Source: a virus (taxonomy: Duplodnaviria > Heunggongvirae > Uroviricota > Caudoviricetes). From it: 13,878 nt of DNA. Location: positions 1 to 13,878 of the IMG/VR virus record IMGVR_UViG_2529293142_000032; one strand, given 5' to 3'. A program made the translations under genes and the position numbers. Shown here piece after piece: positions 1,382-7,634 of this stretch (its first letter is position 1; each line of letters begins with the position of its first letter). The notes under the pieces are model-generated. The model was not told the origin of the DNA. It ran no database searches and was given only the letters and a program-made list of their open reading frames with translations.

Positions 1382-1678
1382 TCACTTTTTATCGCGCCCT
1401 GTGTGCCCGTATAACGTACCACGCAGTGGATCTTCTTTTTTAAGGTCTATGCCCATGCCAGCCAGTGTTTTTGTTGCAGCGGTTCTTATGGCACAAATCT
1501 GATCCCTTTGCGGTTCTCTGGGCATGGTTGCCCTTCGGATACATGCCGTTCGTCTTTCCGTCACGTACTGACGCGCTTCATCACTCGCAGATTGTTTCAG
1601 TAACTCGCCCCAGCGGTTGGCCGCGCGTCGCCATAACCCCTTCGCTTCCAGCTCCTCAGCTTTGTCATCATGCACCAT
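1382..1678 (-). CDS. PerC-family transcriptional regulator-like protein (98 aa)
   Basis: The N-terminal motif AEELEAKGLWRRAANRW resembles the PerC/Pch family signature from memory. A paralog lies at 7362..7634. Not verified by search. Confidence 0.5.
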   Translation of the reverse strand: MVHDDKAEELEAKGLWRRAANRWGELLKQSASDEARQYVTERRTACIRRATMPREPQRDQICAIRTAATKTLAGMGIDLKKEDPLRGTLYGHTGRDKK

Positions 1679-1791
1679 AAGCCTGACTCCGTTGATATCT
1701 GTTAAATCTGAACTGGCATATTTCTGTTCTTTTAAAATCTGCCATATAGCTTATTGTATGAGACATCTCTCCTACAATAAGGACTGACCAG

Positions 1792-2163
1792 ATGAGGCTT
1801 ACCAGTCGCAAAAAAGAAATTCTCAGCTACTACCGTCCGGATCACCGCGAATGGGTAACAACCGAAATCGGTCCGCCGCCATTTGATGTATCTGGTGTGG
1901 CTTACCTGCTTCACGGCATGGATGCATTCAATAAACGGCATCATCTTGAATCAACCAGACGAACGCTTGAGGCAATGGTTCGCGACGGGGTGCTTGAGCG
2001 GGTGAATGTTTACGAAAGGCGACAGGACAGAACACAAACGGGAGATGGTGCTGGTGTGCGCTGTATCGTTTCCCGTTATGGTCTGCCGGGACAGTGTGTG
2101 GTTATCCGTGACAATGACGGGGCAGATAACGCAATTAACGGTGAATGTGTCAGAACGGCATAG
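1792..2163 (+). CDS. Hypothetical protein (123 aa), possible winged-helix fold
   Basis: ORF with an AAGGA Shine-Dalgarno about 8 nt upstream of the ATG. Divergent from the PerC-like gene. No recognisable family. Confidence 0.5.
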   Translation: MRLTSRKKEILSYYRPDHREWVTTEIGPPPFDVSGVAYLLHGMDAFNKRHHLESTRRTLEAMVRDGVLERVNVYERRQDRTQTGDGAGVRCIVSRYGLPGQCVVIRDNDGADNAINGECVRTA

Positions 2164-2419
2164 CTGTACGGGCGTTATGAATATGCCGTAACCACACAGC
2201 GAACGAAAGGGGAGGCAATAAATACTCCCCGTCAAAAACACCAACATATAGCGCCACAATCAGGTCCCTGGCGTTGTTTTATGGTTTCCCCGTGTTCGCA
2301 GCTTTATTTGCTCAGCGTTGCGCTGGTGGTATTTGTGGGCGTTATGGTGCTGCTGCCATGTGTGGCCTGAATCACTGGCTTTGTGACTGACTCGTTATTT
2401 TCTGGTTGATGTTTGAGCG

Positions 2420-2451
2420 TATAACAGCGTTATACAGTGGTATGCTGTATA
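2420..2451. promoter_or_regulatory. Operator-like inverted repeat (TATACAG-n7-CTGTATA plus an extra TATAACAG half-site) upstream of the RHH gene
   Basis: Perfect 7-bp inverted repeat with a third half-site, immediately 5' of the ORF at 2453. Confidence 0.4.
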
Positions 2452-2452
2452 G

Positions 2453-2773
2453 ATGTTCTCGCTGATATGGTCGTTTACAATGAGCAAATCTGGTCTGGTC
2501 GCGTTCCGCATCCCACCTGAATTACTGGATGAGTTTAACAGCTCTGTTATCGCTTCCGGGGGGAACAAAACTGCCTGGCTTGTTGATGCTGTTCGTATGA
2601 AGCTCGGACAGCCGGAAATTTCTGTTGATTCACGGTTACATGAGCTGGCGGAGCGAATGGAGAAAGCCGCTGCGTCGCTTATTGCCGGAAAGCCGAACAT
2701 CCCACCAAAGCCACAAAGAGAAACGGCAGTTATCAGGGCCATTGCCAATAACCATCCGACAGTAACCAGATAA
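2453..2773 (+). CDS. Ribbon-helix-helix (CopG/Arc/MetJ-like) DNA-binding protein; start may be the internal ATG at 2480
   Basis: The N-terminal segment LVAFRIPPELLDEF ... TAWLVDAVRMKL fits a beta-strand/helix/helix RHH pattern. A palindrome lies upstream. Confidence 0.5.
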   Translation: MFSLIWSFTMSKSGLVAFRIPPELLDEFNSSVIASGGNKTAWLVDAVRMKLGQPEISVDSRLHELAERMEKAAASLIAGKPNIPPKPQRETAVIRAIANNHPTVTR

Positions 2774-2782
2774 GGCCGTCTG

Positions 2783-2810
2783 TTTGTCACGGTCTGTCAC
2801 TCTCTGTCAC
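2783..2810. repeat. Three phased direct repeats of TGTCAC at exactly 10-bp spacing
   Basis: TGTCAC at 2785-2790, 2795-2800 and 2805-2810, immediately after the RHH gene stop codon. Confidence 0.5.
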
Positions 2811-2980
2811 GATATCAGGTGATACGAAAATTTCGTAGGTCTGACTATCTTTGAGATAGTCGGTTCTCCCCTCCGTGGTCATTTTGACCATGGAGCTACC
2901 ACCTTGCCACACAAAAGGGATGGTCATTATAACCATCCCCTTCAAAGCCCCTTTCATGGGGCTACCGACACCAGCACCCC

Positions 2981-3073
2981 GGCTCAATTTTGAGCCGCCT
3001 CTTAATCAACGACTTACCGCCACCAGCTACCATCCTCAAAATTGAGGAGCCATTTAACCAATAACTTACCGCC
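2981..3073. repeat. Imperfect tandem repeat of a ~52-bp unit, each unit containing a short hairpin and a ~20-bp direct repeat
   Basis: GGCTCAATTTTGAGCC (2981-2996) and CCTCAAAATTGAGG (3034-3047). TTAATCAACGACTTACCGCC (3002-3021) matches TTAACCAATAACTTACCGCC (3054-3073) at 17 of 20 positions. Confidence 0.45.
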
Positions 3074-6099: not shown

Positions 6100-6115
6100 A
6101 TTGCGTACCTTTGCT

Positions 6116-6784
6116 TCATGGCTTCGTAAACCTTGTCTTCATCCAGGTCATCCGGTGAAACCTGTTGTCCGATTTTTTCAGTTCCTGGTGGTATCTGACG
6201 TGTTCGCAGGCAGCTTTTCGGGCATATTCCTCCTGTAGTTTTTTGGCCTCTATACGACGGCTTTCAGGGTTGTTTTCCCTGTAAAGCGCCAGCGAGAGAT
6301 CAAACTCAGACTGTGTTATGTAGTTGTCACGCATTCCATCCAGCACTTTCAGCGCTGCGGTCTTGCCGGAACTATAGCCGTTGCTGTCATCGTTAACCAT
6401 CGAATAAATCATCGCCTGACGGGCTTTGTCTTCATCGCTGACGAACTCCCATTCCGGTGAATTCTCTGTCATGTGCCGTTCAGTGAAAGCGGTAATAGCC
6501 TCGGGTTCTTCGCGTAGTTTTTTGATGATGGCGGATGATTTCAGGTCGGTTGTCCGCAGAAGTCGGAGAGCAAGAACCGGATTACTTTTTGCTTCCTCCG
6601 AAACGGAAACGTTATGTTCCCGTGTGTGTTTTTTGGGTAACGGTTCAGGCTCGTTGCTGCGAAAGAGGGATTCAGCGCCCTTTACTTCGCTGATGTCAGG
6701 AACATCAGGCTGATTAACGGTATCGCCAGAATTGTCCGCACCAACATTTCGGCCCTTGTTGAGATGTAAAAAAGACATTTTCAC
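6116..6784 (-). CDS. Hypothetical protein (222 aa), tandem paralog of 5437..6099
   Basis: AAGGA Shine-Dalgarno 7 nt upstream of a GTG at 6784 (ATG at 6778). Polar, low-complexity N-terminus followed by a domain conserved with the downstream paralog. Confidence 0.6.
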   Translation of the reverse strand: MKMSFLHLNKGRNVGADNSGDTVNQPDVPDISEVKGAESLFRSNEPEPLPKKHTREHNVSVSEEAKSNPVLALRLLRTTDLKSSAIIKKLREEPEAITAFTERHMTENSPEWEFVSDEDKARQAMIYSMVNDDSNGYSSGKTAALKVLDGMRDNYITQSEFDLSLALYRENNPESRRIEAKKLQEEYARKAACEHVRYHQELKKSDNRFHRMTWMKTRFTKP

Positions 6785-6949
6785 GTTGTTTTCCTTTTTG
6801 TCTGTAGCTTCTGCATTATTGCGGTCTGATACTTGCTTGCGGATTGCCGTTGATGGCCCCGATGAGGCGTTTTTTGATTTTTTTCGGATTTTCCCCCGCC
6901 ATCTAGAAGGTGCGAAATTCTCCCGGCCCCCAGATATTGCAACAAACGA

Positions 6950-7123
6950 TTAGGCATTGCGCCCCCCTTTATTCAGCGCCTCATCAATGAGTTTTCTTGC
7001 CACTTCATGAATGGTTGGCCTGATACCGTAGGCAGAACGTGCCGCTTCGTCGTTGCGGATCCGTTCAAGGCGATCTATCTGTTCACGGGCCAGAAGTACG
7101 GCCCTTACGTTTTTTGCTTTCAT
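6950..7123 (-). CDS. Small hypothetical protein (57 aa), possible regulator heading the paralog operon; not in the ORF track
   Basis: Translation MKAKNVRAVLLAREQIDRLERIRNDEAARSAYGIRPTIHEVARKLIDEALNKGGRNA. GGGG-rich Shine-Dalgarno upstream. AT-rich promoter-like region with inverted repeats at 7130-7210. Confidence 0.4.
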   Translation of the reverse strand: MKAKNVRAVLLAREQIDRLERIRNDEAARSAYGIRPTIHEVARKLIDEALNKGGRNA

Positions 7124-7256
7124 GTGATAACCCCGATAGTGTTTATTGTTTCACATATTGCAATGATAGCACTCATTATTGCGATTAATGAAACACGAAT
7201 GTAATATTAATCAGGAACGGGGTTTCAGTGTTTTTGCAACCGTCATCCTTTAACGA

Positions 7257-7282
7257 CCGCCAGCTCTCTGGCGGTTTTTTTT
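7257..7282 (+). terminator. Rho-independent terminator (plus orientation)
   Basis: CCGCCAG-ctct-CTGGCGG stem-loop followed by T8. Confidence 0.6.
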
Positions 7283-7287
7283 GCAAT

Positions 7288-7314
7288 AAAAAAGGCCAGA
7301 TGTCAGATCCGGCC
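7288..7314 (-). terminator. Rho-independent terminator (minus orientation) ending the leftward replication/regulation operon
   Basis: On the minus strand, GGCCGGAU-cugac-AUCUGGCC (one G-U pair) followed by U6. It lies about 50 nt downstream of the PerC-like gene stop. Confidence 0.6.
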
Positions 7315-7361
7315 CTGTAGCTTTGTTTCTTTGTCGTGATATGCCTGACGGAGTGGGGGTA

Positions 7362-7634
7362 TCAGTCGCCCGTCCATTTCCTGAATGCGCTGCCGTTGGG
7401 CTGATGCAGTCCCATTTCCTTTTGCGTCCGGCTTATTGCGGCTTTTGCATCACCGTACTGATCCAGCTTCACGGGTGGGCGTGCTGCCTTACGGATACAT
7501 TCCGCGCGACGTTTTGCCGCCTGCTCTCGTTCCTTATCAGTGTTCACCAGCCGCATCACCTCAGCCCATCGGGCCGCTGCTCTCCGGTACAGTCCCTTAG
7601 CCTCCAGCTCTTCCGCCTTACTGTCATGAATCAT
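7362..7634 (-). CDS. PerC-family transcriptional regulator-like protein (~90 aa from the internal ATG)
   Basis: MIHDSKAEELEAKGLYRRAAARW is paralogous to 1382..1678. Its ATG overlaps the stop of the FinO-like gene (ATGA). Confidence 0.5.
   Translation of the reverse strand: MIHDSKAEELEAKGLYRRAAARWAEVMRLVNTDKEREQAAKRRAECIRKAARPPVKLDQYGDAKAAISRTQKEMGLHQPNGSAFRKWTGD

Follow-up and report, generated by a model that had tools for sequence, protein, structure and literature searches.

PchA, PchB and PchC of enterohemorrhagic Escherichia coli (EHEC), together with PerC of enteropathogenic E. coli (EPEC), activate LEE1 within the enterocyte effacement locus (LEE) via relief of silencing by H-NS, StpA and Hha (PMC4764244). 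Relatives of these proteins behave differently: PchD and PchE show no LEE activation (PMC6265319), PchE represses csgD/curli, eae and ler and induces flagella (PMC6265319, PMC7369912), its targets being csgD, flhDC, ler and stpA (PMC7369912), and among the copies borne on phage-inducible chromosomal islands (PICIs), those of EDL933 and CFT073 have no effect on LEE1, while EcCIMP1_025 silences it (PMC11773190). Gram-negative PICIs were defined by Fillol-Salom et al. in 2018, and some of those from E. coli carry PerC variants (PMC6092414); Pick et al. (2025) describe PerC regulators as "commonly found in PICIs" (PMC11773190). Here, we compare with these systems two PerC-family genes, referred to as PerC1 and PerC2, in a 13,878-nucleotide stretch of viral DNA (IMG/VR record IMGVR_UViG_2529293142_000032; the whole stretch is called the window below). 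Their carrier is a Gram-negative PICI-type phage satellite of roughly 15 kb. We consider it probable that the two are maintained genes of old lineages, combined on the satellite by shuffling, that act as regulators in the manner of the Pch proteins and of the AraC negative regulators (ANR).

1382..1678, minus strand: PerC1, distal and monocistronic PerC-family gene, 98 amino acids (aa), at the satellite end away from the integrase
7362..7634, minus strand: PerC2, PerC-family gene of the satellite backbone, 90 aa, closing a replication-associated operon

Group 1 of the family, comprising EPEC PerC (perABC of pEAF/pMAR2) and EHEC PchA/B/C, shares with the window copies the Pfam family, the invariant N-terminal residues and the predicted helical layout. 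However, its members form another clade and lie in the plasmid perABC operon or beside the lysis cassette of lambdoid prophage remnants, whereas both window copies lie in a PICI-type satellite, and LEE1 activation by relief of H-NS silencing has been demonstrated for group 1 only. Among the "virulence regulator" labels given to genes of E. coli satellites and prophages, that of the PerC family is one of the most common; calling the satellite genes LEE activators over-interprets a role demonstrated only in the PerC/PchABC branch.

The closest described arrangement is that of PchE (ECs1588), a group 3 Pch protein of the Sakai element Sp7 (also O-island 51, CP-933C or EcCIEDL933). Like PerC2, PchE is a PICI-type protein of 90 aa, and it directly follows an ECs1586 homolog and a gene for a single-stranded DNA-binding protein (SSB); its identity is 54% to 56% to PerC2 and 47% to 53% to PerC1. 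The Sp7 order of RgdR, primase, ECs1586, SSB and pchE matches the window order (PMC3378721). Unlike Sp7, the window has a ProQ/FinO gene between the SSB gene and PerC2 and a second, distal PerC gene, whereas Sp7 has one PerC copy followed by capsid and terminase genes. EcCIMP1_025 of the PICI EcCIMP1 (Pick et al. 2025) is likewise PICI borne, is 56% identical to PerC2 and has its place toward the distal end of EcCIMP1, close to a homolog of the 123-aa gene that adjoins PerC1. In contrast to the window, EcCIMP1 holds a single PerC copy, and this copy has been shown to silence LEE1.

Two PerC genes in one PICI sub-lineage

PerC1 and PerC2 are genuine members of the PerC family. Against Pfam PF06069 (PerC), with a curated gathering score of 22.6 bits, PerC1 scored 82 bits (E = 3.8e-23; residues 1-83 on model positions 1-82 of 90) and PerC2 scored 117.6 bits (E = 3.1e-34; residues 1-88 on model positions 1-88 of 90). 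Both also matched phrog_994 and several "transcriptional activator" phrogs in PHROGs, while an NCBIfam search gave no family above its cutoff for either protein. The N termini, MVHDDKAEELEAKGLWRRAANRW for PerC1 and MIHDSKAEELEAKGLYRRAAARW for PerC2, share the start M(V/I)HD(D/S)KAEELEAKGL(W/Y)RRAA(N/A)RW, and in a BLASTP comparison of the two proteins, 45% of the 77 aligned residues are identical, a match that far exceeds chance (E = 3e-21). Eleven residues that are invariant in an alignment of 11 sequences (EPEC PerC, PchD, PchE, K-12 YfdN and others), namely, A7, L10, E11, G14, R17, R18, A19, W23, R36, R43 and C46, are all present in both copies, as they are in an alignment of 57 sequences, and lengths of 98 and 90 aa fit the small size of the family (about 90 to 105 aa). 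The initial annotation had recognized these two open reading frames (ORFs) at their exact coordinates, without giving the strand, which is minus for both; the N-terminal motif that it quoted is found in each, and the family that it assigned is the correct one, as the hidden Markov model (HMM) search it proposed as a check matched both proteins to PF06069 and so leaves the assignment unrefuted. The PerC identity of both genes is already in public annotation, with "PerC family transcriptional regulator" as the RefSeq/PGAP label for both in strain 2015C-4136CT1.

The two genes differ in how widely they occur. Among 5,426 complete E. coli genomes, the ProQ/FinO-PerC2 pair has a match in about 1,050. 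By tblastn, PerC2-type genes directly follow SSB or SSB-ProQ in E. ruysiae, E. albertii, Atlantibacter, Kluyvera, Shimwellia and Enterobacter, and among the matches listed they occupy the conserved position in Pantoea and Lonsdalea as well; this cross-genus census is a small sample of at least 14 confirmed loci among those matches. The PerC1 subfamily comprises 14 clusters at 90% identity, all from E. coli where the organism is named, and its clade has so far been seen only in E. coli. At a DNA identity of at least 80%, PerC1 occurs in about 49 complete genomes, and the index of an assembly collection lists the identical protein for 501 blocks. In 6 of the 6 places listed, PerC1 is found downstream of a backbone ProQ-PerC pair, at a distance of about 6 kb, and the layout of a backbone plus a distal copy recurs in 4 of the 5 places listed for an 85%-identical PerC1 variant, and likewise in locus L012. 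As the PerC1-bearing elements have D5-type, DUF927 or AAA_25 replicases and occupy three or more chromosomal integration sites, the two-copy layout is a stable feature of a PICI sub-lineage. In an HMM census of the loci listed, two PerC genes occurred only in elements with this backbone and distal layout, and a single one occurred in Sp7, EcCIMP1, the ABU 83972 PICI and 14 loci of other species and genera. We found no description of the two-copy architecture in the searchable literature.

A neighbor-joining tree (95 columns, 200 bootstraps) separated the copies. The distal copies, including PerC1, formed a clade of their own with 100% bootstrap, as did PerC2 with the backbone copies of ABU 83972 (71% identical to PerC2) and E. 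ruysiae. EcCIMP1_025 grouped with copies from Kluyvera and Enterobacter (100%), with PchD attached less firmly (88%), and EPEC PerC grouped with the 104-aa lambdoid-prophage type (95%), which serves as a stand-in for group 1 by size and position and may not be PchA or PchB. Despite their identity, the node joining PchE with PerC2 had a bootstrap below 60% on these 95 columns. The "PerC" label thus spans at least four well-separated clades, two of which are stably held by one PICI sub-lineage. Since the window copies fall in separate, strongly supported clades and are only 40% to 45% identical, duplication within the element was rejected, and the clades argue for two old lineages joined by module exchange. 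The paralog pairs of the element had suggested that its distal half might be the remnant of a second, tandem satellite; as there is no second integrase, primase or origin and the block from ProQ to PerC1 moves as one unit with three different replicases, this reading is not supported.

Public naming across these clades is inconsistent: by its NCBI name, protein P0089 is an "ANR family transcriptional regulator," although its Pfam PerC score is 106 bits and it shares 78% identity with EcCIMP1_025 (L004:10418-10699), the latter being named "PerC family."

The dN/dS ratio is 0.10 to 0.11 in the distal clade, at a dS of about 0.8, and 0.09 to 0.41 among backbone copies. These low values indicate purifying selection, with both copies being kept as proteins. 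They also bear on the idea that PerC1 is a redundant, decaying extra copy without a function of its own, which could explain its internal stop codon in the EC12 element, the small size of its clade and the frameshifts in other genes between the two copies in the window. We consider decay highly improbable given the selection between clade members, the identical protein in so many assembly blocks, a position kept across replicases and integration sites, and the retention of the family-invariant residues and the predicted fold.

Neither window copy falls in a clade with a demonstrated LEE effect. If both copies nevertheless acted as EPEC PerC and EHEC PchA/B/C do, they would turn on ler/LEE or another virulence locus, with a dosage effect. 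Membership in the same Pfam family and the conservation of all invariant residues are compatible with this explanation, as are the additive effects of multiple pch copies in O157:H7 (literature summarized in PMC3378721) and the contribution of the related satellite O-island 51 to LEE expression, though this is exerted via RgdR (PMC3378721). However, the well-supported clade of PerC and the 104-aa prophage type excludes both copies, PerC1 shares 33% and PerC2 47% of its residues with EPEC PerC, with almost the same values for the 104-aa homolog (32% and 47%), and PchD and PchE (groups 2 and 3) and the PICI copies are reported as nonactivating on LEE1, with EcCIMP1_025 silencing it. For the PICI copies, the primary source is reportedly the work of Porter et al. 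from 2005. We cite the statement that they do not activate LEE1 second-hand, from PMC11773190 and PMC6265319.

Host range points the same way. Most genera with PerC2-type genes, e.g., Kluyvera, Shimwellia, Enterobacter, Pantoea and Lonsdalea, to our knowledge have no LEE. As the backbone copies are conserved in such genera, their core role cannot be LEE activation. Taken as an account of both copies, LEE activation is improbable, and ler/LEE activation is not the outcome that these comparisons lead us to expect. The initial annotation had reasoned from PerC/Pch-type proteins as activators of virulence loci, a premise that holds for PerC and PchA/B/C at LEE1 and fails for PchD, PchE and the PICI copies. 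Of the cross-talk with host virulence regulation that it derived from this premise, a general cross-talk with host regulons is plausible by the precedent of PchE, while the ler/LEE version is countered by clade membership and by PICI copies that are neutral or repressive.

Operon context of PerC2 and the distal PerC1 locus

PerC2 is embedded in the replication module of the satellite, which includes the following features.

8897..9183: AT-rich iteron region, 35.5% GC, putative satellite origin and operon promoter region
8651..8896, minus strand: 81-aa ORF, homolog of ECs1586 (71% identity, tblastn), opens the operon that ends in PerC2
8292..8654, minus strand: SSB, 120 aa as listed, Pfam PF00436, 61.1 bits
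7631..8155, minus strand: ProQ/FinO-domain protein, 174 aa, Pfam PF04352, 83.7 bits, translationally coupled to PerC2
7255..7316: two terminator-like hairpins directly downstream of PerC2

The 81-aa ORF, SSB, ProQ/FinO and PerC2 genes lie on the same strand with overlapping or short junctions and a terminator at the end. PerC2 is the last cistron of this unit, as its ATG (7634) overlaps the TGA stop codon of the ProQ/FinO gene (ATGA), an AAGGAG sequence lies 11 nucleotides (nt) upstream of the ATG, and two hairpins follow the gene. The first of these (7316-7292, minus strand) has a T-run and lies about 45 nt past the stop codon, and the second (7255-7276, plus strand) has the opposite orientation. 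The AAGGAG sequence, the ATG/TGA overlap and the 90-aa orthologs annotated by PGAP make the ATG at 7634 the likely start, in preference to an upstream GTG at 7676. Positions 8938-9176 contain no fewer than 10 GGTGAACAGT-type repeats, which occur in both orientations, and the region 8897-9183 is probably the satellite replication origin. By analogy with pchE, whose polycistronic transcript with ECs1586 and SSB starts 10 nt upstream of ECs1586 (rapid amplification of cDNA ends and RNA sequencing; PMC7369912), we infer that the four genes are cotranscribed from a promoter within this iteron region.

The position of PerC2 directly after a small ORF and SSB, with only the ProQ/FinO gene inserted, is the feature of backbone PerC genes, recurs in Sp7 and in six genera, and is lacking in PerC1, which has its own ribosome-binding site, GGAG, 8 nt before its ATG. 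The surroundings of PerC1 are as follows.

1679..1791: divergent intergenic region, 113 bp, AT rich, flanked by PerC1 and the 123-aa gene, whose promoters it presumably holds
1792..2163, plus strand: conserved 123-aa gene, divergent from PerC1, distal-end gene of the satellite family

The promoters of both genes would thus lie within 1679..1791. Homologs of the 123-aa gene with 65% to 67% identity are found downstream of the backbone PerC gene at Atlantibacter, Kluyvera, Shimwellia, Enterobacter, Lonsdalea and EcCIMP1 loci (among them L004:8920-9279 and L015-L022), and the gene flanks PerC1 in every listed locus that carries PerC1 or its 85%-identical variant. The 123-aa protein has no Pfam, PHROG or PADLOC match.

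One member of the PerC1 clade, P0128 (59% identical; L038:4782-5084), lies outside any visible PICI backbone, between insertion sequence (IS) elements and a SPATE-type serine-protease autotransporter gene.

The fixed position of the backbone copy in a replication-associated operon across many genera, together with purifying selection on the PerC genes, would also fit a role within the satellite cycle. In this scenario, the PerC genes mainly regulate genes of the satellite or its helper phage, e.g., by de-silencing AT-rich modules or helper late genes, with host effects being by-products. The cotranscription with SSB reported for pchE and the location of group 1-like homologs beside the lysis cassette of lambdoid prophage remnants agree with such a role. 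Conversely, the PICI literature that we examined reports no satellite phenotype of a PerC gene, the pchE promoter is active without induction, and an SOS-inducing drug represses it about threefold (PMC7369912), whereas a role in the lytic cycle would predict the reverse, and the backbone copy is truncated in some elements that otherwise look intact. We regard a primarily satellite-directed role as possible but doubtful.

Predicted fold and a possible link to the ANR family

AlphaFold2 models of both copies consist of four helices (residues 5-13, 16-29, 33-50/51 and 57/58-73/74) without a helix-turn-helix (HTH) motif, with pLDDT values of 76.6 for PerC1 and 78.6 for PerC2 and of about 90 over residues 1-50 in each. 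A sequence search of the PDB returned nothing below E = 0.59 for the PerC copies, and with no significant PDB neighbor the fold offers no mechanistic lead.

A lead came from the ANR family (Aar, Cnr and Rnr; NCBIfam NF033650), whose members are, like PerC, small and all helical, with three predicted helices. The NF033650 model (length 54, curated cutoff of 32 bits) was listed for 9 of 9 PerC-family proteins tested, was the top match for 7 of the 9, and aligned to residues 6-52 over nearly its whole length at 13.6 to 32.5 bits; in the window copies, it was covered from position 8 to 52 (PerC1) and from 8 to 54 (PerC2). The ANR signature comprises A10, E14, A22, W26, A29, W43 and R47 on three helices (Santiago et al. 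2016, PMC4983702). The spacing of PerC residues A7-E11-A19-W23 equals that of ANR A10-x3-E14-x7-A22-x3-W26, and in ungapped register PerC A7/E11/A19/W23/R42/C46 correspond to Aar A14/E18/A26/W30/R49/C53, so that both families share the register A-x3-E-x7-A-x3-W-x18-R-x3-C. The equivalent of A29 is V or L in the PerC copies, and that of W43 is Q in PerC2 and Y in PerC1.

Profile comparisons pointed in the same direction. With a 14-member ANR profile gathered by exhaustive search, hhalign aligned the PerC profiles at E values of 0.0027 and 0.00082 over 51 to 52 ungapped columns in the Aar register. These alignments scored 26.0 and 21.7; column shuffles gave 9.9 ± 2.0, with a maximum of 17.7, none of 300 reaching the real score, and reversed alignments gave 13.6 and 12.8. 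PF06069 was the sole Pfam family matched by more than one ANR representative (2 of 14), the reciprocal match being weak; Aar itself has no match to Pfam PerC. These alignments make a remote relationship between PerC and ANR likely. The ANR literature that we examined makes no mention of PerC, although Pick et al. wrote that EcCIMP1_025 "may instead be" an ANR (PMC11773190). PerC proteins differ from ANR proteins in being about 30 residues longer, in carrying an additional, fourth helix and a C-terminal FR motif that is conserved, and in scoring below the ANR cutoff; furthermore, ANR genes accompany AraC/XylS regulators, of which general Pfam scans of the window ORFs found no domain. If the relationship holds, it joins the literature on antisilencing by Pch/PerC with that on anti-activation by ANR, and it suggests H-NS, StpA, Hha and AraC-family regulators as candidate partners.

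On the basis of these comparisons, we propose the following model. PerC1 and PerC2 would represent old lineages joined through module shuffling, PerC2 as the conserved backbone copy coupled to ProQ/FinO and PerC1 as a stand-alone distal gene beside the 123-aa gene. Both are predicted to be all-helical proteins of about 10 kDa without an HTH, in which the N-terminal motif would form a three-helix module remotely related to ANR. Their most likely mode of action, by analogy with Pch and ANR proteins, would be to remodel nucleoprotein complexes of the H-NS/StpA type, as Aar binds H-NS directly (PMC5570504), or to bind other regulators; classical sequence-specific activation seems less likely. The outcome would be to retune host regulons, those acquired horizontally and those for surface or motility traits, in a direction and with targets that differ by clade. 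Expression of PerC2 would track the promoter of the replication module, and PerC1 would be expressed independently.

Several observations weigh against this proposal. Concerning the mode of action, Fukui et al. found that Pch binds DNA in chromatin immunoprecipitation, with no coprecipitation of H-NS (PMC4764244), which argues against a simple ANR-like mechanism through protein-protein contacts. Each window copy scores 18.8 bits (E = 0.0011) against NF033650, below its cutoff; the hhalign probability for the PerC-ANR match is 11% to 24%; and a PerC profile aligned with Aar alone or with a narrow Aar clade gave no significant result. The relation is therefore remote and could reflect convergent helical periodicity. 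Foldseek against the PDB yielded only generic MIT/TPR-like helical matches (best E value, 2.3). Concerning maintenance and expression, either PerC copy can be lost: in EC12, PerC1 is a pseudogene with an internal stop (L001:8101-8397) while PerC2 is intact, and a backbone copy shortened to 54 aa accompanies an intact PerC1 in 2 of 6 places (L027:2708-2872 and L030:4167-4331). A scan for consensus sigma-70 promoters had no match upstream of PerC1 at its threshold, and its match counts overall were below the shuffle expectation. Finally, the integrase end of the element lies beyond the window, and mobilization by a helper is a prediction.

The two copies might also differ from our model in acting, one or both, as ANR-type anti-activators or silencers that lower the expression of virulence or adhesion genes, as EcCIMP1_025 does for LEE1 and PchE for curli. 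An ANR-like N-terminal module is common to the whole family, PerC2 shares more than half of its residues with EcCIMP1_025, and PchE represses csgD, eae and ler even as it induces flagella. Yet the EcCIMP1_025 clade excludes both window copies at 100% bootstrap, its members reach or nearly reach the ANR cutoff (31.1 and 32.5 bits, against 18.8 in the window copies), and no gene of the AraC/XylS family is among the window ORFs scanned. This explanation appears unlikely to us.

The reciprocal loss of the two copies, PerC1 by a stop codon in EC12 and the backbone copy by truncation elsewhere, could hint at partial redundancy or antagonism. A more speculative extension of our proposal, which we put forward tentatively as less than an even prospect, is that PerC/Pch "activators" and ANR "anti-activators" form one superfamily with a common three-helix module and that the two divergent members on the satellite, PerC2 under the replication-module promoter and PerC1 as a stand-alone gene at its edge, constitute a two-input switch for host regulons. 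If this were true, members of the superfamily would shift H-NS- or AraC-type nucleoprotein complexes either way, the targets would be surface, motility or virulence regulons of the host, and the reciprocal loss would reflect such redundancy or antagonism.

The satellite and its other genes

The layout of the element runs from an integrase through an AlpA-like regulator, an RgdR-like protein, a primase, the iteron origin, SSB and ProQ/FinO to accessory genes. The main genes of the window all lie on the minus strand, with the AlpA-like gene first and PerC1 last, and PerC2 and PerC1 are separated by a block of uncharacterized genes that includes one for a protein resembling the small terminase subunit (TerS). 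The features outside the two PerC loci are listed below.

12811..13029, minus strand: AlpA-like HTH regulator, 72 aa, Pfam HTH_17 (E = 1.4e-11), integrase-side position as in EC12
10998..11297, minus strand: DUF4222 protein, 99 aa, Pfam PF13973 (61 bits), divergent RgdR-family member
9184..11016, minus strand: D5/P4-alpha-type primase-helicase, 610 aa, Pfam D5_N, DUF5906 and Pox_D5
1..1281, minus strand: IS1414 (IS256 family) with embedded astA, inserted about 100 bp past the PerC1 stop codon

We classify the element as PICI type because its gene order matches that of Sp7 and of the integrase-bearing elements of EC12 and 2015C-4136CT1, following the definition of Fillol-Salom et al. The EC12 element is 97% identical, its AlpA end bears a tyrosine integrase, and its chromosomal neighbors are nfeF and tRNA-Ile/mug; that of 2015C-4136CT1 is 95% identical, also has a tyrosine integrase and lies between rcnR and thiM. 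With the integrase taken from the EC12 relative, the layout of a PICI is complete (integrase, AlpA-type regulator, replicase with iteron origin, about 10 to 15 kb), and the initial annotation was right to place both PerC genes in one element. In Pfam and PHROG scans of the window ORFs, neither capsid nor lysis genes turned up, and the sole structural-type match was a TerS-like fragment (phrog_57, E = 6.3e-7). Rfam and tRNA scans of the window gave no match, nor did PADLOC find a defense system among ten ORFs between and around the PerC copies.

The IS1414::astA unit next to PerC1, which the initial annotation had taken as a pointer to virulence, is real. Its IS256/Mutator-family transposase gene (1..1209, minus) scores 400 bits in Pfam, and the EAST1 (astA) peptide of 38 aa, encoded in another frame inside the transposase gene (378..494, minus), is identical at 38 of 38 positions. 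However, in the three complete genomes that carry the entire two-PerC module, the alignment begins at position 1282 and the IS is missing at this place. Its proximity therefore looks incidental, and in the relatives examined the satellite does not include IS1414.

The DUF4222 protein is 31% identical to RgdR/ECs1581 (E = 7e-14), with PGA replacing RGD at residues 20-22. RgdR is a second regulator of LEE and motility on O-island 51, and its RGD motif matters for the activation of type III secretion (PMC3378721). Counting PerC1 and PerC2, three genes of the satellite thus have known LEE regulators as relatives.

Several smaller genes of the window merit mention. At 3897-4429 (minus), a 177-aa HTH gene of relatives is split into ORFs of 62 and 107 aa by a 1-nt deletion, and at 6096-6900 (minus), deletions of 2 nt and 1 nt alter the start and C terminus of a 269-aa gene; these frameshifts are either real pseudogenes or homopolymer-type assembly errors. 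Two paralog pairs, all on the minus strand, consist of an 84-aa protein (5186-5440) and the 81-aa protein (8651-8896), with 54% identity and a common phrog_1231 match, and of 220-aa (5437-6099) and 222-aa (6116-6784) proteins with 32% identity over about 100 residues; neither pair has a Pfam or PADLOC match. A 394-aa ORF at 11617-12801 (minus) is probably not a real gene, the relatives having short Icd-like and YlcI/YnfO-type genes on both strands at this position. The weak TerS match noted above belongs to a 136-aa protein (4426-4836, minus), whose position is occupied by DUF1441 or TerS genes in relatives, and which may be a packaging-redirection module of the satellite.

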